Virus record (IMG/VR): IMGVR_UViG_2609460219_000012
Strand: one strand, 5' to 3'
From: a virus
Taxonomy: Duplodnaviria; Heunggongvirae; Uroviricota; Caudoviricetes
DNA: 34,456 nt
Made by a program: the position numbers and the translations under genes. Each line of letters starts with the position of its first letter. Position 1 is the first letter of the stretch. Of this stretch, positions 4,423-15,519 are shown one piece after another. The notes beneath the pieces are model-generated. The model searched no databases. It had not been told where the DNA came from and saw only the letters and a list, made by a program, of their open reading frames with translations.

Positions 4423-4953
4423 ATGGTTGATGCAAAAATTCTGAATGGTGTCAGCACATTATTACGGGCTTACGGACGCCTGACCTGCGGAGTTCTGGCT
4501 GAAAAAATGAATATGCTGCCCTCGTCAATGGTGTATTTCCTGCGTGATGCGGTTGATGCCGGAGTGCTCACCGAATGCAACGGATTTTATGACGTTCCGC
4601 GCCCGCGTCCGACGCCGCCTGTAAGACGAAACGCAACTGAGCAGCCTGCTGTTGATGATGCGGTGTGGTGCAACTGGCGTCGCTCATTACCCTGGGTGGA
4701 AGGTAATACCATCCCCGCGCTGGCAAAAGAGTTTGCGACGGGCGTGCTGACCTGTGAATCCGTTCACATCGTTGCAGAAGTGGACAACAGAATGTACGAA
4801 CAGGGTATGCCCCGTTTTGTGATGGCTTATATCGATATCCGGCTGGGGCGTTTTATTTGCAGTTCAAGCGCCTGGAATATCACCGACCATGTACTGCGTT
4901 ATCTCATTCTTGATTGTTCTCCGGTTCCCGCAGCGGTGCAGGAGGTGGCGTGA
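4423..4953 (+). CDS. Hypothetical early protein (176 aa)
   Basis: ORF with RBS gaggaa upstream; no recognisable motif. Confidence 0.45.
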   Translation: MVDAKILNGVSTLLRAYGRLTCGVLAEKMNMLPSSMVYFLRDAVDAGVLTECNGFYDVPRPRPTPPVRRNATEQPAVDDAVWCNWRRSLPWVEGNTIPALAKEFATGVLTCESVHIVAEVDNRMYEQGMPRFVMAYIDIRLGRFICSSSAWNITDHVLRYLILDCSPVPAAVQEVA

Positions 4954-5483
4954 TGTTTTTTAAAACGTCAAATTCCGCAGCACTGCTGGCATGGGACCAG
5001 TTTATGGCGGACTGCCTGAAACTACGCGAAGAAGCCCGCCATCTTGATAAGGTTCTGGGCTGTGGTTGCCGGTCAGTATTCAGCACAGGTATTGGTGGGC
5101 GTCATTTTCATGGCGTGAATTTTCCGGGGAATGAGCGCCCCTTCTCGCGGGAGCTGTGGACCGTACAACGGCCCGCATCAGGTAACAGTTGCAGGCCCAG
5201 AACTTCGCGGATACCTGCTCATCTCAGGGAGCAGGCAAGAGAGCTGGCGAAAATATGGCAGGAGAATATTCCGGTCACTTACGCCCGCACAGACGCTCTT
5301 TTACCCGCACTGGGACTGGATTTCAGCGCAACAATATTCGGCCCGCTCCGGTGGTTCCGTGTTGGTGATGTGATTTACGTCATGATGGGGATGACGCCCG
5401 CACAAGGCCGCATGACTGAAATCCNTTCTGACGAATTTATCCGGGCGCAAAAACAGGCGGAGGTAAACAATGGAAAACAATGA
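4953..5483 (+). CDS. Hypothetical early protein (176 aa from Met at 4953)
   Basis: ORF track frame 4914..5483; Met at 4953 overlaps previous stop (ATGA) and follows RBS ggaggtgg. Contains one ambiguous base. Confidence 0.4.
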   Translation: MFFKTSNSAALLAWDQFMADCLKLREEARHLDKVLGCGCRSVFSTGIGGRHFHGVNFPGNERPFSRELWTVQRPASGNSCRPRTSRIPAHLREQARELAKIWQENIPVTYARTDALLPALGLDFSATIFGPLRWFRVGDVIYVMMGMTPAQGRMTEIXSDEFIRAQKQAEVNNGKQ

Positions 5484-5652
5484 AACATCGTATTCGTGGC
5501 TGGGGACATTTACCACTGTGAAGCAGGAATGTCCGACCTGCGGTAATGAAAACCCTGAATATCTGAAAGAGTGCCCTCATTGTGGTGGGCAGAAATGCAA
5601 CCACTGCGATATGGGCGATGACACGGCGTGCATGAATTGTGAAGGTGAATAA
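5470..5652 (+). CDS. Small zinc-ribbon protein with four CxxC motifs (60 aa)
   Basis: CPTC, CPHC, CNHC, CMNC motifs in a 60-aa ORF; RBS ggagg upstream. Confidence 0.5.
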   Translation: MENNETSYSWLGTFTTVKQECPTCGNENPEYLKECPHCGGQKCNHCDMGDDTACMNCEGE

Positions 5653-5714
5653 TATGAATAATGAAACTAAAACATTATTTTCCATAAAATCCACTCTGAT
5701 TGATGTGTAAATTC

Positions 5715-5740
5715 AGGCGGTGTTGCAGCACCGCCTCTTT
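5715..5740 (+). terminator. GC-rich hairpin (AGGCGGTG / CACCGCCT) followed by CTTT, inside the early operon upstream of gemA
   Basis: 8-bp perfect stem with 6-nt loop read directly from sequence; short T tract only. Confidence 0.3.
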
Positions 5741-5754
5741 CCGGAGGTACGATC

Positions 5755-6306
5755 ATGAGTCGCACATCCCTGATTAAATTAATCCATGTCGCCCGTCGGG
5801 AGCTACAACTCGACGACGACACTTACCGCGCTTTTCTGATGCAGAAAACGGACAAAATCAGTTGCCGCGAGCTGACGGTCACGCAACTGGAACAGGTGCT
5901 CGATGCCATGAAAGAACGCGGCTTTAAGAAGCAGAATAAACACCCACGCCGACGCTTTAAGGAACATGTCACGCCCCGCGAGAAGGTGTACAAAGTCTGG
6001 CAGCAGATGGCAGAAGACGGGTTTATTACCGACGGCAGTGATGTGGCGCTGGACAGATACGTTCAACGCCTGACGGCGAAACGCAACGGTGGACAGGGTG
6101 TTTCCACACTGGCGTGGTGTCATGGCGACACGCTGCTGACAGTCCTCGAAACACTCAAACAGTGGCACATCCGCTGTATTCGTGAAGCCTTTTCCCGTCA
6201 CGGGCTTCCGTTGCCGGTCAGTCCGTCCGGGCGTGAACTGCGCGGCTATGATGCCATGACGGCGGCTTATGCCCATGCCAGAAAGACACGGAGGATGGCA
6301 CAATGA
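5755..6306 (+). CDS. gemA: GemA-like early protein (183 aa)
   Basis: Position immediately upstream of mor with overlapping stop/start, as for Mu gemA; RBS ggaggt upstream. Confidence 0.6.
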   Translation: MSRTSLIKLIHVARRELQLDDDTYRAFLMQKTDKISCRELTVTQLEQVLDAMKERGFKKQNKHPRRRFKEHVTPREKVYKVWQQMAEDGFITDGSDVALDRYVQRLTAKRNGGQGVSTLAWCHGDTLLTVLETLKQWHIRCIREAFSRHGLPLPVSPSGRELRGYDAMTAAYAHARKTRRMAQ

Positions 6307-7484: not shown

Positions 7485-7907
7485 ATGCAGCATGATTTAT
7501 TTGAACACGATCCGGCAATTCGCCAGTTAATCGGACATATTAATAACATTCCGGCCCCGGAACTGGAATCACGCTGGCCCCGTTCGGTGGTTGATCTGAT
7601 TGATGTTCTGGAAAACGAACTGAAACGCCAGAACGTCAGCAATCCCCGTGAGCTTGCCCGTAAACAGGCCGTTGCCCTGTCCTGTTTTCTGGGCGGACGG
7701 CAGTTTTACATCCCCTGCGGCGATACGATCCTGACCGCGTTACGCGACGATTTGCTTTACTGCCAGTTCAATGGTCGTAACATGGAAGAACTGCGTCGCC
7801 AGTATCGCCTGTCCCAGCCGCAGATCTACCAGATTATTGCCCGCCAGAGAAAGCTGCATACACGACGTCATCAGCCTGATCTGTTCTCACCTGAAAGCCA
7901 GAAATAA
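7485..7907 (+). CDS. C: C, late gene transcription activator, 140 aa
   Basis: 140-aa ORF matching recalled Mu C; paralogous to Mor; RBS gggggaaaat upstream. Confidence 0.8.
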   Translation: MQHDLFEHDPAIRQLIGHINNIPAPELESRWPRSVVDLIDVLENELKRQNVSNPRELARKQAVALSCFLGGRQFYIPCGDTILTALRDDLLYCQFNGRNMEELRRQYRLSQPQIYQIIARQRKLHTRRHQPDLFSPESQK

Positions 7908-7930
7908 CCGGCATCCTGCCGGTTATTTCC
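7904..7930 (+). terminator. Hairpin ATAACCGGCA-tcc-TGCCGGTTAT after C (end of middle transcript); weak U tract
   Basis: 10-bp perfect stem read directly, overlapping the C stop codon. Confidence 0.5.
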
Positions 7931-7998
7931 TGTCACCATAATCCCGCACCTGCCATCTGATTTTTTAGACTGCCATCAGAGCATTTTTTCAGGGAAGC

Positions 7999-8517
7999 AT
8001 GATGGCGGGGATACCAAAAAAACTGAAAGCCGCACTGCTGGCGGCAACGATTGCCGGTGGCGGTGTGGGTGGTTATCAGGAAATGACCCGTCAGTCTCTG
8101 ATCCATCTGGAAAATATCGCTTATATGCCTTACCGCGATATTGCCGGTGTGCTTACGGTCTGTGTGGGACATACCGGGCCGGATATCGAAATGCGCCGTT
8201 ACAGCCATGCGGAGTGTATGGCTCTCCTCGACAGTGATTTAAAACCGGTTTATGCGGCAATCGTTCGTCTTGTCAGGGTGCCGCTGACGCCATATCAGAA
8301 AACGGCGCTGGCAACGTTTATTTTCAACACCGGTGTTACCGCATTCAGTAAATCAACGCTGCTGAAAAAACTCAATGCCGGTGATTACGCCGGAGCGCGT
8401 GACCAGATGGCCCGCTGGGTGTTTGCCGCAGGCCATAAATGGAAAGGACTGATGAACCGTCGCGAAGTGGAAATGGCTATCTGGAATATCAGGGGGGCGG
8501 ATGACCTTCGCCAGTAA
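7999..8517 (+). CDS. lys: Endolysin (lysozyme) with Gly/Ala-rich N-terminal signal-anchor-release-like segment, 172 aa
   Basis: Matches recalled Mu Lys; N-terminal KLKAALLAATIAGGGVGGY is weakly hydrophobic; first gene after C as in Mu. Confidence 0.75.
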   Translation: MMAGIPKKLKAALLAATIAGGGVGGYQEMTRQSLIHLENIAYMPYRDIAGVLTVCVGHTGPDIEMRRYSHAECMALLDSDLKPVYAAIVRLVRVPLTPYQKTALATFIFNTGVTAFSKSTLLKKLNAGDYAGARDQMARWVFAAGHKWKGLMNRREVEMAIWNIRGADDLRQ

Positions 8518-9540: not shown

Positions 9541-9827
9541 TTAACGATATTCTGACCGAAGACCGTCGTCTGGTCATCTTGCGTTCCCTGATGGACTGCA
9601 ATAACGAAGCAAACGAGTCCATCCTTCAGGACTGTCTGGATGCATACGGACACAACGTTTCCCGCGATGTGGTTCGCGGCCAGATTGACTGGCTGGCAGA
9701 GCAGCAACTGGTCACCGTGGAAAACCTGCGCGGCTTTTATGTCGTAACGCTGACCTCCCGTGGTCAGGATGTGGCAGAAGGTCGTGCCCGCGTTACCGGT
9801 GTCAAGCGTCCTCGTCCCCGTGCATGA
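9537..9827 (+). CDS. Hypothetical protein (96 aa)
   Basis: ORF with overlapping stop/start coupling to neighbours. Confidence 0.5.
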   Translation: MINDILTEDRRLVILRSLMDCNNEANESILQDCLDAYGHNVSRDVVRGQIDWLAEQQLVTVENLRGFYVVTLTSRGQDVAEGRARVTGVKRPRPRA

Positions 9828-10414
9828 CAGGAGGCGTGATGGACAGGAAAACACGGGGCCGGGCTTCAAAAGTGGATTTACTGCCAGAAAACGTACGTAA
9901 AACGCTGCATGAAATGCTGCGTGATAAAGCGATCCCACAGGCCCGCATTCTGGAAGAAATTAACGCACTGATTGAAGACGCTGGCCTGCCGGATGAGATG
10001 AAACTCTCCCGTTCCGGTCTGAACCGTTACGCGACGAACGTCGAACAGGTAGGCCATAACCTGCGACAGATGCGTGAAATGACGTCAGCACTGACCGCAG
10101 AACTTGGCGACAAGCCAATGGGAGAAACCACAAAGCTGATTCTGGAAATGGCCCGCAGCCAGCTTTTTAAGGCCATGATGCGGCAAATCGAAAACCCGGA
10201 ATCTGACGTGGATATTGACCTGCTGAAAAATGCCATGCTGGCGGCACAGCGTCTGGAATCCACGGCAATGTCCAGCCACCGGCGCGAGAAAGAAATCCGC
10301 CAGGCATTCGCAGAAGAAGCGGCAAACGCCGTCAGTGAAGAACTGCGCGGGCAGGATGGTATCAGCGAAGAACTGGAGCAGCGTATCCGTGATGTGTTGC
10401 TGGGTAAAGCGTAG
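9824..10414 (+). CDS. Terminase small-subunit-like DNA-binding protein (Mu gp27-like; possibly gene D), 196 aa
   Basis: Position directly before the large terminase region; basic N-terminus. Assignment by synteny with Mu. Confidence 0.5.
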   Translation: MTGGVMDRKTRGRASKVDLLPENVRKTLHEMLRDKAIPQARILEEINALIEDAGLPDEMKLSRSGLNRYATNVEQVGHNLRQMREMTSALTAELGDKPMGETTKLILEMARSQLFKAMMRQIENPESDVDIDLLKNAMLAAQRLESTAMSSHRREKEIRQAFAEEAANAVSEELRGQDGISEELEQRIRDVLLGKA

Positions 10415-10473
10415 GAGTTACGTTATGAAAAATGATTACAAGGCGCTGCTAATCAGCGCCCATCGAAAGGCTT

Positions 10474-10962
10474 TTACTGTAGCCGGGTGTTCAGATACTC
10501 AAACGGTGATTCAATGTCAAGCTGTGATTCACCGAGCACTTTATATGGGAGCTTCATTGCGTAATACAAATAAGCTACTGCAAATTTTGTTTGTGCCGAC
10601 TGAGAAAGTCCGACAGGGATGTGCATAAGTTCGGTGTTATTGGCGAGTGCATTAGTTACGCAGAGAATCGTTGCTTGATTATGGCGTTCCAGAAGAACAC
10701 GCCAGACAACTAATGGAATTTCTGACCAGTCATCATCCTTCATCAGAAAATCCTCAATGGCGTTATCTGCGGCTTTTTCAAATTGCTTTCTGTAGCTAAT
10801 CGTTCTGATTTGCTCTATGCGTGGTGTGAATCGTTCATTCAGGGGCCAAAGGCGCTGAAGTGTTTCCCATCCGTTTATTGAGACAAATTGAACAGTATCC
10901 ATAGATTGCTTTAATTCTGTTTCACAAAATATTTCAAGTAGTTTTATTGCTTTTGGTGACAT
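10474..10962 (-). CDS. Hypothetical protein, 162 aa, opposite strand, low-GC pocket between terminase genes
   Basis: Only long ORF across 10629-10960 on either strand; RBS GAGGG 6 nt before ATG on minus strand; sampled GC roughly 26-45% versus ~50% elsewhere. No recognisable motif. Confidence 0.5.
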   Translation of the reverse strand: MSPKAIKLLEIFCETELKQSMDTVQFVSINGWETLQRLWPLNERFTPRIEQIRTISYRKQFEKAADNAIEDFLMKDDDWSEIPLVVWRVLLERHNQATILCVTNALANNTELMHIPVGLSQSAQTKFAVAYLYYAMKLPYKVLGESQLDIESPFEYLNTRLQ

Positions 10963-12718
10963 GACGTTCCCTCAGGTATTTAAAGAAAACCGAAGTATTA
11001 TGGCTGAAAAAATAATGGGGTATGAAAAAAATAGCCGGGGCAAAAAACTGATTCCGTCAAGTGAACCCCGTCAGATTGATCTTCAGGAAGAAGCAACCAA
11101 ACTTGGTGTCGAGATCGTTACAGACATCACTAACGCCCAGCCATCTAATGAACCGGTTTTTCTGGGCTATCAGCGCCGCTGGTTTGAGGATGAAAGCCAG
11201 ATTTGTATTGCTGAAAAATCCCGTCGTACCGGTCTGACATNGGCCGAAGCGGGCCGCAATGTCATGACGGCAGCAAAGCCGCGTCGCCGTGGCGGTCGCA
11301 ACGTTTTTTATGTGGGTTCCCGTCAGGAAATGGCGCTGGAATACATTGCCGCCTGTGCCCTGTTTGCCCGCGCCTTTAACCAACTGGCAAAGGCTGACGT
11401 ATGGGAGCAGACCTTCTGGGACAGCGACAAAAAAGAAGAAATCCTCACTTATATGATCCGTTTCCCTAACAGCGGATTTAAGGTGCAGGCGCTGTCAAGC
11501 CGTCCGTCTAACCTGCGTGGTTTGCAGGGGGACGTGGTGATTGATGAGGCGGCATTTCATGAAGCCCTGGACGAACTCCTGAAAGCGGCCTTTGCTCTCA
11601 CCATGTGGGGTGCCCGCGTGCGGATCATATCGACACATAACGGCGTCGATAACCTGTTTAACCAGTACATTCAGGATGCGCGCGAGGGGCGCAAGGATTA
11701 CAGCGTTCACCGCATCACGCTGGATGATGCCATCGCTGACGGGTTGTACCGACGTATCTGTTACGTCACGAATCAGCCGTGGTCGCCGGAAGCGGAAAAA
11801 GCCTGGCGTGATGGCCTGTACCGGAATGCGCCGAATAAAGAGAGTGCCGACGAGGAATACGGCTGCATTCCTAAAAAATCCGGGGGCGCTTATCTGTCAC
11901 GCGTGCTGATTGAAGCCGCCATGACGCCAGCGCGGGATATCCCGATTCTGCGTTTTGAAGCCCCGGACGATTTTGAATCGCTGACACCACAAATGCGCCA
12001 CGGCATCGTTCAGGACTGGTGTGAACAGGAGCTGCTCCCGTTGCTCGATGCGCTGTCGCCGCTCAATAAACACGTACTGGGCGAAGACTTTGCACGCCGT
12101 GGCGACCTGACGGTGTTTGTGCCGCTTGCCATCACGCCTGACTTACGCAAACGCGAATGTTTCCGCGTGGAGCTGCGTAATGTGACCTATGACCAGCAGC
12201 GACAAATCCTTTTATTCATTCTGTCCCGTTTGCCCCGTTTTACCGGCGCTGCATTTGATGCCACCGGTAACGGCGGTTATCTGGCAGAAGCCGCCCGTCT
12301 GATTTATGGCCCGGAGATGATCGACTGTGTGAATCTGACCGCATCCTGGTATCAGGAGTGGATGCCAAAACTGAAAGGCGAGTTTGAAGCGCAGAACATC
12401 ACGATTGCCCGGCACCAGACCACACTTGATGACCTGCTCCACATCAAGGTGGACAAAGGTATTCCGCAGATTGATAAGGGGCGCACAAAAGATGAAGGCG
12501 GTAAAGGCCGACGACATGGCGACTTTGCCGTGGCGCTCTGTATGGCTGTCAGGGCGTCTTATATGAATGGTTTTGTTATCGACGAGGACAGCATACAGGC
12601 GCTGCCACCACGCCACCGTGGTGATGATGTTGATAACGATGATTTTGATGATTATCACCAGTTTGAACGAGGGGCTGGTAATGGGCCGTATTCTGGATAT
12701 TTCCGGGCAGCCGTTTGA
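10961..12718 (+). CDS. Terminase large subunit (possibly gene E); true start may be Met at 11000 or 11015
   Basis: 585-aa ORF immediately upstream of portal; acidic/ATPase-like segments (VVIDEAAF). 5' end overlaps the minus-strand ORF start by 2 nt. Confidence 0.7.
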   Translation: MTFPQVFKENRSIMAEKIMGYEKNSRGKKLIPSSEPRQIDLQEEATKLGVEIVTDITNAQPSNEPVFLGYQRRWFEDESQICIAEKSRRTGLTXAEAGRNVMTAAKPRRRGGRNVFYVGSRQEMALEYIAACALFARAFNQLAKADVWEQTFWDSDKKEEILTYMIRFPNSGFKVQALSSRPSNLRGLQGDVVIDEAAFHEALDELLKAAFALTMWGARVRIISTHNGVDNLFNQYIQDAREGRKDYSVHRITLDDAIADGLYRRICYVTNQPWSPEAEKAWRDGLYRNAPNKESADEEYGCIPKKSGGAYLSRVLIEAAMTPARDIPILRFEAPDDFESLTPQMRHGIVQDWCEQELLPLLDALSPLNKHVLGEDFARRGDLTVFVPLAITPDLRKRECFRVELRNVTYDQQRQILLFILSRLPRFTGAAFDATGNGGYLAEAARLIYGPEMIDCVNLTASWYQEWMPKLKGEFEAQNITIARHQTTLDDLLHIKVDKGIPQIDKGRTKDEGGKGRRHGDFAVALCMAVRASYMNGFVIDEDSIQALPPRHRGDDVDNDDFDDYHQFERGAGNGPYSGYFRAAV

Positions 12719-14219
12719 TTTTGACGATGAAATGCAGACCCGCAGCGATGAGCTGGCAATGGTCATGAAGCGTACGCAGGAGCATCCTTCCAGTGGTGTG
12801 ACGCCGAACCGGGCCGCGCAGATGCTGCGTGATGCCGAACGCGGTGATCTGACCGCACAGGCTGACCTGGCCTTTGATATGGAAGAAAAGGACACCCACC
12901 TTTTTTCCGAACTGAGCAAGCGCCGCCTTGCCATTCAGGCGCTGGAATGGCGCATCGCTCCGGCACGTGATGCCAGCGCACAGGAGAAAAAAGACGCCGA
13001 CATGTTGAATGAATATCTGCATGATGCGGCGTGGTTTGAAGATGCCCTGTTTGATGCCGGTGATGCCATTCTCAAGGGTTATTCCATGCAGGAGATTGAA
13101 TGGGGCTGGCTGGGCAAAATGCGCGTGCCGGTGGCGCTGCATCATCGCGATCCGGCGCTGTTCTGCGCGAACCCCGATAATCTGAACGAATTACGTCTGC
13201 GTGATACGTCTTATCACGGGCTGGAGCTGCAACCGTTCGGCTGGTTTATGCACCGGGCCAAATCCCGCACCGGGTATGTCGGCACCAATGGCCTTGTGCG
13301 CACGCTTATCTGGCCTTTTATTTTTAAAAACTATTCCGTGCGTGATTTTGCAGAGTTCCTGGAAATTTACGGACTTCCCATGCGCGTCGGTAAATATCCG
13401 ACCGGCTCCACGAACCGTGAGAAAGCCACACTGATGCAGGCCGTGATGGATATCGGGCGACGTGCCGGTGGCATTATTCCGATGGGGATGACGCTGGATT
13501 TTCAGAGCGCCGCAGATGGTCAGTCAGACCCCTTTATGGCGATGATTGGCTGGGCAGAAAAAGCGATTTCAAAAGCCATTCTGGGCGGCACCCTGACCAC
13601 AGAGGCTGGCGATAAAGGTGCACGGTCGCTGGGTGAAGTGCATGATGAGGTTCGCAGGGAAATCCGTAACGCGGATGTGGGCCAGCTTGCCCGCAGTATT
13701 AACCGTGACCTGATTTATCCCCTGCTGGCACTGAACAGTGACAGCACCATTGATATTAACCGCCTGCCGGGCATTGTGTTTGATACCAGTGAAGCGGGTG
13801 ATATTACGGCACTGTCTGACGCCATTCCGAAACTGGCGGCGGGAATGCGTATTCCGGTCTCCTGGATACAGGAAAAACTCCATATTCCGCAGCAGGTCGG
13901 TGATGAAGCCGTGTTTACTGCTCAACCGGTCGTCATGGATAACGGTCCGCAGAAAGAGGCCGCATTATCCGCTGAAGATATCCCGCAGGAGGATGATATC
14001 GACCGGATGGGCGTCTCACCGGAAGACTGGCAGCGTTCGGTTGATCCCCTGCTGAAACCCGTCATTTTTTCTGTGCTGAAAGATGGCCCGGAAGCCGCCA
14101 TGAACAAAGCCGCTTCATTATATCCGCAGATGGATGATGCAGAACTTATCGACATGCTGACCCGTGCCATTTTTGTTGCCGATATATGGGGGCGTCTGGA
14201 TGCCGCAGCAGACCATTGA
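12681..14219 (+). CDS. H: Portal protein, 513 aa from Met at 12681
   Basis: Synteny and size match Mu H; RBS gagggg before ATG 12681; ORF track frame begins 12567 inside terminase. Confidence 0.8.
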   Translation: MGRILDISGQPFDFDDEMQTRSDELAMVMKRTQEHPSSGVTPNRAAQMLRDAERGDLTAQADLAFDMEEKDTHLFSELSKRRLAIQALEWRIAPARDASAQEKKDADMLNEYLHDAAWFEDALFDAGDAILKGYSMQEIEWGWLGKMRVPVALHHRDPALFCANPDNLNELRLRDTSYHGLELQPFGWFMHRAKSRTGYVGTNGLVRTLIWPFIFKNYSVRDFAEFLEIYGLPMRVGKYPTGSTNREKATLMQAVMDIGRRAGGIIPMGMTLDFQSAADGQSDPFMAMIGWAEKAISKAILGGTLTTEAGDKGARSLGEVHDEVRREIRNADVGQLARSINRDLIYPLLALNSDSTIDINRLPGIVFDTSEAGDITALSDAIPKLAAGMRIPVSWIQEKLHIPQQVGDEAVFTAQPVVMDNGPQKEAALSAEDIPQEDDIDRMGVSPEDWQRSVDPLLKPVIFSVLKDGPEAAMNKAASLYPQMDDAELIDMLTRAIFVADIWGRLDAAADH

Positions 14220-15519
14220 TCTGGCGTATGCCGCACGCCTCCCGCCAAAGGAGGCTGTCGCGTATTTCCGCGCCAAAGGCTACAACATCACCTGGAACTG
14301 GTACGAACAACTGGCAGACGCGCACGCCCGCGCCTTTACCGTTGCCAAAGCCACCCGGATGGATGTACTGACCACTATCCGTGAGGAAGTGGAGCGGGCT
14401 GTCAGTGAAGGCATCACCCGTGAGGAATTTACCCGCACACTGGCCCCCCGGCTGCAAAAACTCGGATGGTGGGGAAAACAAATCATCGTGGATGCAGACG
14501 GAAACGCAAAGGTAATCGAGCTGGGCAGTCCGCGTCGTCTGGCAACCATTTATAACGTCAATACCCGTACGGGGTACGGGGCGGGACGTTATGCGCAGAT
14601 GATGAATACCGCCGATTTGTACCCGTACTGGCAGTACGTTGCCGTTATGGATGGCAGAACACGCCCGGAACATGCGCGGCTGCATAATATGGTTTTCCGG
14701 TATGACGACATTTTCTGGCAAACGCATTACCCGCCCAATGGCTGGAACTGCCGCTGTCGCGTCCGGGCGCTGTCTGCGGCCCGCATGAAAGAACTGGGGC
14801 TACAGGTCAGTTATGGTGCGTCATTCATGAATACCCGCGAAGTGGATGCCGGTACGGATGAAAGCACTGGAGAGATTTTCCGCACATCGTCAACCACGTT
14901 TGACAACGGTCGGGTAAAAATGACGCCGGATGTGGGCTGGTCATATAACCCCGGTTCGGCGGCATTTGGTACGGATCAGGCACTGATTCGAAAACTGGTG
15001 GAAGTTCGTGACGCGCAGCTGCGTGAGCAGGTTGTTCAGACGCTGAATAACAGCCGGGAGCGTCAGCTTGCTTTTTCCCTCTGGCTTAAACGTCTGGCGA
15101 AATCACGCCGGGCCGGACATGAGGTCCGTGCGCTGGGGTTTATGACGGAAGCCGTGGCGGAGGCCGTATATCAGCGCACCGGGAATATGCCAGCCCGTCT
15201 GCTTGTGATGAACGGAAAAAGTCTGGCGACCACTGCTGATGCCGCCCTGAAACCGGAGGATTTACAGCGTCTGCCGTCACTGATGGCAAAACCACAGGCG
15301 GTATTGTGGGACAGGGAGAACCACCAGTTGCTGTATGTTGTGGCAACCCGCGACGGCACTGCAAAAGTTGTGGTCAGAACATCGCAGGCTGTCAGCAAAC
15401 AGAATGACCGGGCGGATGTGCTGGTCAGTATCAGCCGCGTATCTGCACAGTCGCTTGAAGCCGCGATTGCTGACGGGATGATTGACATACTGGAGGGGCA
15501 TGTGGAGGTGAATAAGTGA
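14200..15519 (+). CDS. F: Head morphogenesis protein F (virion protein), ~440 aa
   Basis: Follows portal with overlapping start; size and position as Mu F. Confidence 0.7.
   Translation: MPQQTIDLAYAARLPPKEAVAYFRAKGYNITWNWYEQLADAHARAFTVAKATRMDVLTTIREEVERAVSEGITREEFTRTLAPRLQKLGWWGKQIIVDADGNAKVIELGSPRRLATIYNVNTRTGYGAGRYAQMMNTADLYPYWQYVAVMDGRTRPEHARLHNMVFRYDDIFWQTHYPPNGWNCRCRVRALSAARMKELGLQVSYGASFMNTREVDAGTDESTGEIFRTSSTTFDNGRVKMTPDVGWSYNPGSAAFGTDQALIRKLVEVRDAQLREQVVQTLNNSRERQLAFSLWLKRLAKSRRAGHEVRALGFMTEAVAEAVYQRTGNMPARLLVMNGKSLATTADAALKPEDLQRLPSLMAKPQAVLWDRENHQLLYVVATRDGTAKVVVRTSQAVSKQNDRADVLVSISRVSAQSLEAAIADGMIDILEGHVEVNK

Follow-up and report, generated by a model that had tools for sequence, protein, structure and literature searches.

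What is an open reading frame doing on the opposite strand between the two terminase genes of a Mu-like phage? The window analysed here is the whole 34,456-nucleotide stretch of the Caudoviricetes record IMGVR_UViG_2609460219_000012. It is 97-98% identical to phage Mu outside a few substitutions, and one of these holds ORF162, a frame of 162 codons on the minus strand (10474..10962 in the ORF listing) with an ATG start and a TAA stop. An earlier note, made from the letters of the window, had described it as a low-GC antisense frame in a space of ~550 bp and had read it as a horizontally acquired accessory gene, a moron. The frame is present exactly as claimed, running from 10962 to 10474, and the identities proposed for its neighbours hold as well: gp27 (9824..10414, plus strand) is the terminase small subunit, terS (Pfam PF11985, 1.4e-52; PHROG 426), and gp28 (11000..12718, plus strand) is the large subunit, terL (PHROG 2, Terminase_6N). 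For terL, the best choice of start is the ATG at 11000, at a distance of 37 bp from that of ORF162, and in relatives terL is called at 560 aa with the same gap of 36-37 bp. The distance from the gp27 stop (10414) to this likely start is 585 bp, while in reference Mu it is 7 bp. The size given earlier for the gap was thus roughly right, but the gap is not otherwise empty, since it also contains a late-strand ORF of 67 codons.

Is ORF162 a real gene? Across 10629-10960 it is, as had been noticed before, the only long open frame, every other ORF on either strand being 42 aa or shorter, and in 2000 shuffles of the segment no ATG ORF of at least 150 aa arose (the longest had 135). The reported drop in GC content is also borne out: ORF162 has 41.1% (GC3 37%) against 53.8% in gp27 and 54.5% in gp28 (flank GC3 58%), with a minimum of 36.5-38% in 200-nt windows. 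A search of 5.8 billion proteins returned 16 close homologues with 99-51% identity, 13 of them exactly 162 aa long, from Escherichia, Salmonella, Aeromonas and uncultured Caudoviricetes. An exhaustive profile search extended these to 167 cluster representatives (E<=1e-3, mostly 155-166 aa), so the family comprises at least 167 clusters at 50% identity. Residues 1-110 of ORF162 overlap no other ORF, and over this part the pairwise differences among nine loci at 49-73% identity are 0.35, 0.24 and 0.61 at codon positions 1, 2 and 3. This pattern indicates purifying selection on the protein. Hundreds of Escherichia, Salmonella and Aeromonas contigs moreover carry the frame unbroken. We regard it as practically certain that ORF162 is a genuine protein-coding gene. 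One homologue, at L026:6001-6488, is frameshifted (its tblastn match is split at residue ~128), the same indel lengthening the small ORF beside it; this copy is a pseudogene or an assembly error.

Then what kind of protein does it encode? The product has 162 aa, 18.9 kDa and a pI of 5.25. Structure prediction, which the earlier note had proposed, gives a confident fold (AlphaFold, AF2, pLDDT 91.7, from an alignment of 86 of the 167 representatives), in which residues 1-140 form a compact helical domain of five helices and two short strands, followed by an acidic, low-confidence tail at 141-162. The hallmark residues of the family are Y57, D66, A68, R88, V89, E92, R93 and P116, with R93 and P116 each present in 86/86 members. 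The hope of placing the protein in a recognisable family by protein and HMM searches was disappointed, as profile searches of Pfam, NCBIfam, PADLOC, PHROGs and PDB gave no sequence match; the best score in PHROGs was a single match with E 0.076. In PADLOC-DB v2, ORF162 had only a sub-threshold hit to Csx15 (E 0.0084 over 36 residues) and three of its relatives had no match. Foldseek against BFVD found no structural match, and the Rfam search found nothing. The sole fold match, a weak one, is HI1480 of Haemophilus influenzae Rd (PDB 1MW5), itself an orphan protein from a Haemophilus Mu-like prophage. The literature on the accessions, on HI1480 and on accessory regions of Mu-like phages yielded no functional information. 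A HEPN ribonuclease was considered for the motif-like R88-x5-H94 and rejected: the histidine is present in only 49/86 members and the fold scores are low. Judged by these searches, ORF162 represents a large, unnamed family of ~160-aa proteins that has neither an annotation nor an informative structural relative. We infer a soluble acidic helical domain without a conserved catalytic motif, and it probably acts by binding another protein.

Where did the gene come from? Comparison of the window with the Mu genome (blastn against NC_000929) delimits a segment of 672 bp without a Mu counterpart (10430..11101), which replaces 70 bp of Mu (12904-12973) and substitutes the first ~25 codons of terL. 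The earlier note had left it undecided whether the same ORF lies in reference Mu; alignment with Mu and D108 shows that the ORF162 segment is absent from both. It is absent likewise from 14/14 deposited phage records that match the 3' end of gp27, which include Mu, D108 and SfMu. A tblastn search of 50,697 deposited phage records (INPHARED) with ORF162 and two distant relatives found no family member, and nothing for ORF162 was found in 5,426 complete E. coli genomes (megablast and blastn) or in the PLSDB plasmids. Yet there are records of identical or near-identical ORF162 proteins for more than 300 contigs of E. coli and Salmonella, among them one of 5.27 Mb.

The window differs from its relatives at other places too. 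At 5671/5672, Mu 7673-8148 (476 bp) is missing, which takes away almost the whole of gp15 and the 3' part of gp14. At 2551-2762, blastn leaves ~212 bp unmatched to Mu 4539-4763 (gp6 region), a second substituted segment, in the early region. Near 12674, a G-run is one G short relative to L023 (IMGVR_UViG_2875703104_000002; 99.2% identity over 12.4 kb), which shifts the terL frame so that the ORF ends at 12718, not at about 12682; the missing G is either a sequencing error or a real frameshift.

Presence of ORF162 also varies on a finer scale. Loci L027 and L032 differ by a presence/absence indel of 582 bp, bounded by GGG and lying within the small late-strand gene, and ORF162 is lost in such close relatives. 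On a larger scale, ORF162 keeps 49-57% identity across phages with gp27-type and DUF1804-type terS genes, while the terL genes of these two lineages are mutually undetectable by tblastn (that of the window does not find that of the DUF1804-type lineage). ORF162 is thus far better conserved than its neighbour genes, which indicates that it has moved between lineages. Very probably, then, ORF162 travels on a mobile accessory cassette. Horizontal acquisition, as suggested from the composition of the window, now rests on the foreign GC content, the patchy presence and the movement between lineages with unrelated terminases. The moron reading was right as far as it went, but it took the unit to be a single gene, whereas the unit is a cassette of two genes overlapping in antisense.

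The second gene of the cassette lies on the late strand (10425..10628, plus strand) and encodes 67 aa (MKNDYKALLISAHRKAFTVAG...), MuF-related and UBA-like. Its ATG at 10425 is preceded by GGAG at 10414-10417, right after the gp27 stop, and the ORF is open and has a start codon in every related terminase-junction locus, though gene callers call it rarely (11 clusters). A profile of 24 small-ORF sequences aligns with residues 44-95 of the gpF of the window (hhalign probability 93%, E 3.3e-7). The N-terminal motif W..aH..AF, which lies outside the overlap with ORF162, is conserved and matches MuF, and the second half is similar to the three-helix UBA domain, that of Cbl-b matching at E 0.0046. 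The homology to MuF is limited to the segment before the core: against the Pfam model of the core (PF04233, Phage_Mu_F), the best E was 0.15, in 1/24 members. The predicted product is therefore a MuF-N-like mini-protein of ~65 aa, not a MuF. The gene also occurs free-standing, without ORF162, between terS and terL in Yersinia phage Tongde, in L034 and in the Yersinia prophages L032 and L033; the 64-aa ORF of the L032 type is better read as a deletion chimera.

How far do the two genes share their DNA? Over 155 nt (10474..10628), codons for residues 112-162 of ORF162 lie opposite those for residues 17-67 of the small ORF. Third-position divergence of ORF162 falls from 0.61 to 0.39 in this overlap, and to 0.23 at residues 131-146, which is what a second coding constraint would produce. 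With the amino acids of the ORF162-type proteins fixed, synonymous resampling predicts that the small frame should be open in 12.6 loci, while it is open in 37/38; this contrast overstates the independence of the loci, which are phylogenetically related, and is to be taken as strong, not exact. The reverse resampling gives 37/37 open against 12.4 expected, and is partly circular because the end of the ORF is defined by its own first stop. Among distant loci, with GC contents between 44 and 72%, 30/31 have no stop in the antisense frame across the final 40 codons, and ATG starts for the small ORF lie 13-25 codons upstream. The stop of ORF162-type genes falls within the small-ORF motif AF-(S/T/N)-VA in most loci, and the register of the overlap is fixed across most of them. 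Bacteria and phages seldom show conserved antisense overlaps between protein-coding genes, and the cases described are often disputed; a register kept at 25-50% identity and at very different GC contents makes this one a strong test case. As far as the aligned loci can tell, both overlapping frames are kept open and are constrained beyond what a single coding frame would require, and it is quite likely that both are translated.

Two other origins were considered and rejected. One is that ORF162 is an antisense shadow of the MuF gene; the 193-aa ORF antisense to gpF is in a different register, and the hhalign probability is 0.1%. That ORF (14146-14727, minus strand, ATG start, opposite gpF codons 1-188) is unrelated to ORF162 and probably a chance frame. 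The other, an idea that came from the L032/L027 indel, which ends at codon 138, is that the tail of ORF162 arose late, by overprinting a small gene that was resident there; tail and overlap, however, are found family-wide, in other contexts as well.

Could the overlap still be a frozen accident? Both genes would then be real and the overlap would have no regulatory meaning, persisting only because separating the genes would damage either one; in a variant of this reading, the small ORF may be a non-functional remnant in the phages that bear ORF162. The codon positions of the small ORF within the overlap speak for it, with differences of 0.18, 0.31 and 0.20, so that the third position is not the most variable. 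So do the small number of gene calls, the clade-specific distribution of the hairpin described below, and the lack of any BLASTP alignment between the overlapped C-terminal halves and those of free-standing small ORFs. However, synonymous choice keeps the small frame open far beyond expectation, its start codons lie at a consistent upstream distance, its non-overlapping motif is conserved and matches MuF, and opposite free-standing small ORFs the antisense frame is riddled with stops. On balance we consider a frozen accident unlikely.

Why does the cassette sit at this junction? DNA homology between the window and L034 breaks at ~10474, the stop of ORF162, and resumes at ~11114. The simplest reading is that many Mu-like phages have, at the terS/terL junction, a resident small late gene of the MuF-N-like kind, that the ORF162 cassette brings its own copy of this gene, and that the shared small-gene sequence serves as a landing pad. 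Such a landing pad would account for finding the cassette at this junction in phages with two unrelated terminase systems. The gap between terS and terL is a hotspot for cargo, and other Mu relatives hold different cargo there. A late-strand ORF of 65-66 aa is found in the gap at L034:4182-4548 and, in Tongde, at L002:3307-3507; L034 has in addition an insert of ~200 bp with a different antisense ORF of 64 aa (MKEKLTIDQKIEIARIAV...). In L028-L031 of the DUF1804-type lineage, a further ~700 bp (about 5044-5766) lie between terL and a 68-aa ORF that adjoins the ORF162-type gene.

Is the family confined to this junction? All relatives with at least 49% identity lie antisense between terS and terL, and start 36-40 bp from the next late gene, which is either terL or the 68-aa ORF preceding it. 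This placement is shared by gp27-type Mu-like phages of Escherichia, Salmonella and Aeromonas and by the DUF1804-type lineage, and the distant relatives L050 and L077 are at a terS/terL junction too. Distant relatives at 30-40% identity (46 viral and 7 genomic loci were sampled) mostly lie elsewhere, at the repressor/transposase end of transposable phages. Of the loci that have MuA or MuB no further than 5 kb away, 25/25 have the family gene oriented divergently from that operon, and in L049, L054, L063 and L078 its start is 45-90 bp from MuA. A CI-type repressor (HTH and Peptidase_S24, Pfam) is encoded on the strand of the family gene in L049, L057 and L063. On the other strand, L063 also has a Ner-like HTH_35 gene, and L056 a weaker match to one. 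The family gene belongs to an operon headed by an HTH_3 repressor-like gene in L012, L013 and L045; in L045, and probably also in L043, L061 and L076, it has the same direction as the downstream late genes.

Prophage-expressed accessory genes usually sit against the lytic operons, alongside the repressor. The orientation of the family against lytic operons, and with the repressor where one is identifiable, fits expression of ORF162 in the prophage state. Wherever the neighbourhood of a relative is identifiable, the phage is a transposable, Mu-like one, and this distribution agrees better with a housekeeping or regulatory role specific to the phage than with a defence gene of a generic kind.

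The architecture of the relatives varies. Some have one or two N-terminal transmembrane helices, with the domain predicted to stay cytoplasmic, and others are fused to a TPR-like module or to a MuF-C-like segment. P0045 (L012:2488-3717) joins a transmembrane helix, an ORF162-like domain and a MuF-C-like CxxC...NCRC segment; further fusions are P0050, P0064, P0105 and P0032, and some of the fusions combine transmembrane helices, a TPR-like module of ~110 aa and the ORF162-like domain. By itself, the TPR-like module exists as well, as an unannotated family of ~134 aa. By tblastn it occurs in four loci, as the N-terminal part of the P0050 fusion in L013 and L014 and as a separate neighbouring gene in L067 and L074, and searching with it for a functional lead gave none.

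Which signals could express ORF162? A ribosome-binding site GAGGG (10969..10973, minus strand) is read directly from the sequence 6 nt upstream of its ATG, as the earlier note had it, and GAGG-like purine runs are at the same place in L008, L009 and L010. Further upstream, a consensus scan finds a single promoter-like site for ORF162, TTCATA and CATAAT with an 18-nt spacer (10997..11026, minus strand), matching the sigma-70-like consensus in 9/12 positions, in a region where such sites are no more numerous than in shuffles. The putative -10 hexamer reads ATTATG on the other strand and takes in the start codon of terL; CATAAT is present in 4/4 loci compared, a conservation confounded by the coding of that start codon. 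The site suggests a promoter that may drive ORF162.

At the other end, a GC-rich hairpin (10441..10461) lies 12 nt after the ORF162 stop, in codons 6-13 of the small ORF. It folds in 12 loci, with 95.8% of cells paired and compensatory changes in 3/8 pairs, and is limited to the terminase-junction clade, the mean z in 31 distant loci being -0.24. An intrinsic terminator was rejected, as a T-tract is absent on both strands and distant relatives lack the hairpin; within its clade it may be an element of the 3' end or of processing.

How would the parts work together? The explanation that we narrowly favour overall is that ORF162 is a mobile factor that binds a protein in the prophage state and is linked with the small gene through antisense transcription. 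ORF162 would be transcribed in the repressed prophage from its own promoter, whose -10 element would overlap the terL start codon; that the gene is expressed in the lysogen is somewhat more probable than this scenario as a whole. Note that, as the genes are convergent and their 3' ends overlap, the two transcripts would be antisense to each other. Expression of ORF162 in the prophage state and of the small gene in the lytic state would then oppose each other. The ORF162 protein would bind a partner, in some relatives while tethered to the membrane or fused to a TPR-like module. Most likely it would keep out superinfecting phage or hold the lytic machinery of its own prophage in check; exclusion or defence, taken by itself as the actual function, has rather low odds. 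More specifically, ORF162 and the MuF-N-like mini-gene might form a previously undescribed two-protein module of transposable phages, in which ~150 nt are dual-coding and the convergent overlap acts as a lysogeny/lysis switch with lysogeny-coupled exclusion or self-control, possibly with a fold related to HI1480. This we offer as a speculative proposal, with the odds against it in its full form.

Might ORF162 instead have only the prophage itself as its target? It would then be a component specific to transposable phages that restrains MuA or the terminase in the lysogen, either by binding the enzyme or by outward transcription that blocks read-through into the gene starting 37-90 bp away. The restriction of all relatives with an identifiable neighbourhood to transposable phages is in favour of this, together with the short distance of ORF162-type starts from the next late gene, or from MuA in the four loci named above, and with the placement of the family gene, which is always antisense to the adjoining gene. 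However, ORF162 is dispensable, since Mu, D108 and L032-type phages do without it, and in several loci Ner-like or other genes stand between the family gene and MuA. Self-control as the sole role seems improbable to us.

Many small acidic phage proteins neutralise host functions, and ORF162 could be one more, a counter-defence or host-takeover protein made in the lytic cycle or constitutively from its own promoter. The protein is indeed small, acidic and non-enzymatic and ends in a disordered acidic tail, the gene is accessory and patchily distributed, and it matches no known defence family. Against this, its orientation is opposite to both the early and the late lytic operons and the same as that of the repressor, and relatives that are membrane-tethered or TPR-fused are unlike known anti-restriction decoys. 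This role is less probable still than self-control. Finally, a spurious ORF or a sequencing artefact at a broken terminase 5' end, a source that the earlier note had itself raised and that the 17 N's of the window and its homopolymer indels relative to L023 might suggest, has a negligible chance of being right, since terL is complete downstream and ORF162 is conserved in its homologues, intact in hundreds of contigs, under purifying selection by its codon-position divergence, and confidently folded. The reading of ORF162 as a prophage-state binding factor coupled to the small gene stays the preferred one.

Does the cassette resemble any known system? Phage morons in the sense of Hendrix and Juhala include rexAB, bor and lom of lambda, gp15 of HK97, and old and tin of P2. 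ORF162 is like them in being present in some but not all close relatives, in its foreign composition, in lying at a gene junction with its own ribosome-binding site, and in facing against the surrounding operon. It differs in that the unit consists of two antisense-overlapping genes and a replaced 5' end of terL, and the protein has no resemblance to those of the named morons. Compared with MuF and SPP1 gp7, the small ORF aligns with gpF residues 44-95 through the pattern AH..AFTVA and G.s..e....L, but covers only ~52 residues, the PF04233 core and the C-terminal parts being absent. Convergent type I toxin-antitoxin loci with 3' overlap are known in par (fst/RNA II) of pAD1, in txpA/RatA and in bsrG/SR4. 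ORF162 and the small gene are likewise convergent, with a 3' overlap of ~100-150 nt, in a prophage, and with a hairpin in the overlap region; this is a likeness of layout only, as here both partners encode conserved proteins. Within Mu itself, gp15 (Mup15) is also small and antisense to the lytic operon. It is the sole antisense gene of the Mu early region, at a position unrelated to that of ORF162, and is deleted in the window along with part of gp14.

What does the cassette mean for Mu-like phages? It has no existing name, and is a phage accessory module whose unusual feature is a conserved dual-coding overlap. Phage Mu is a classic model, and since the phage of the window differs from it by few clean substitutions, the function of the cassette is open to a simple isogenic comparison. 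If the lysogeny/lysis switch or the exclusion system proposed here were true, the cassette would be a new type of module in prophage biology, and it might give the first functional lead for the orphan structure HI1480.
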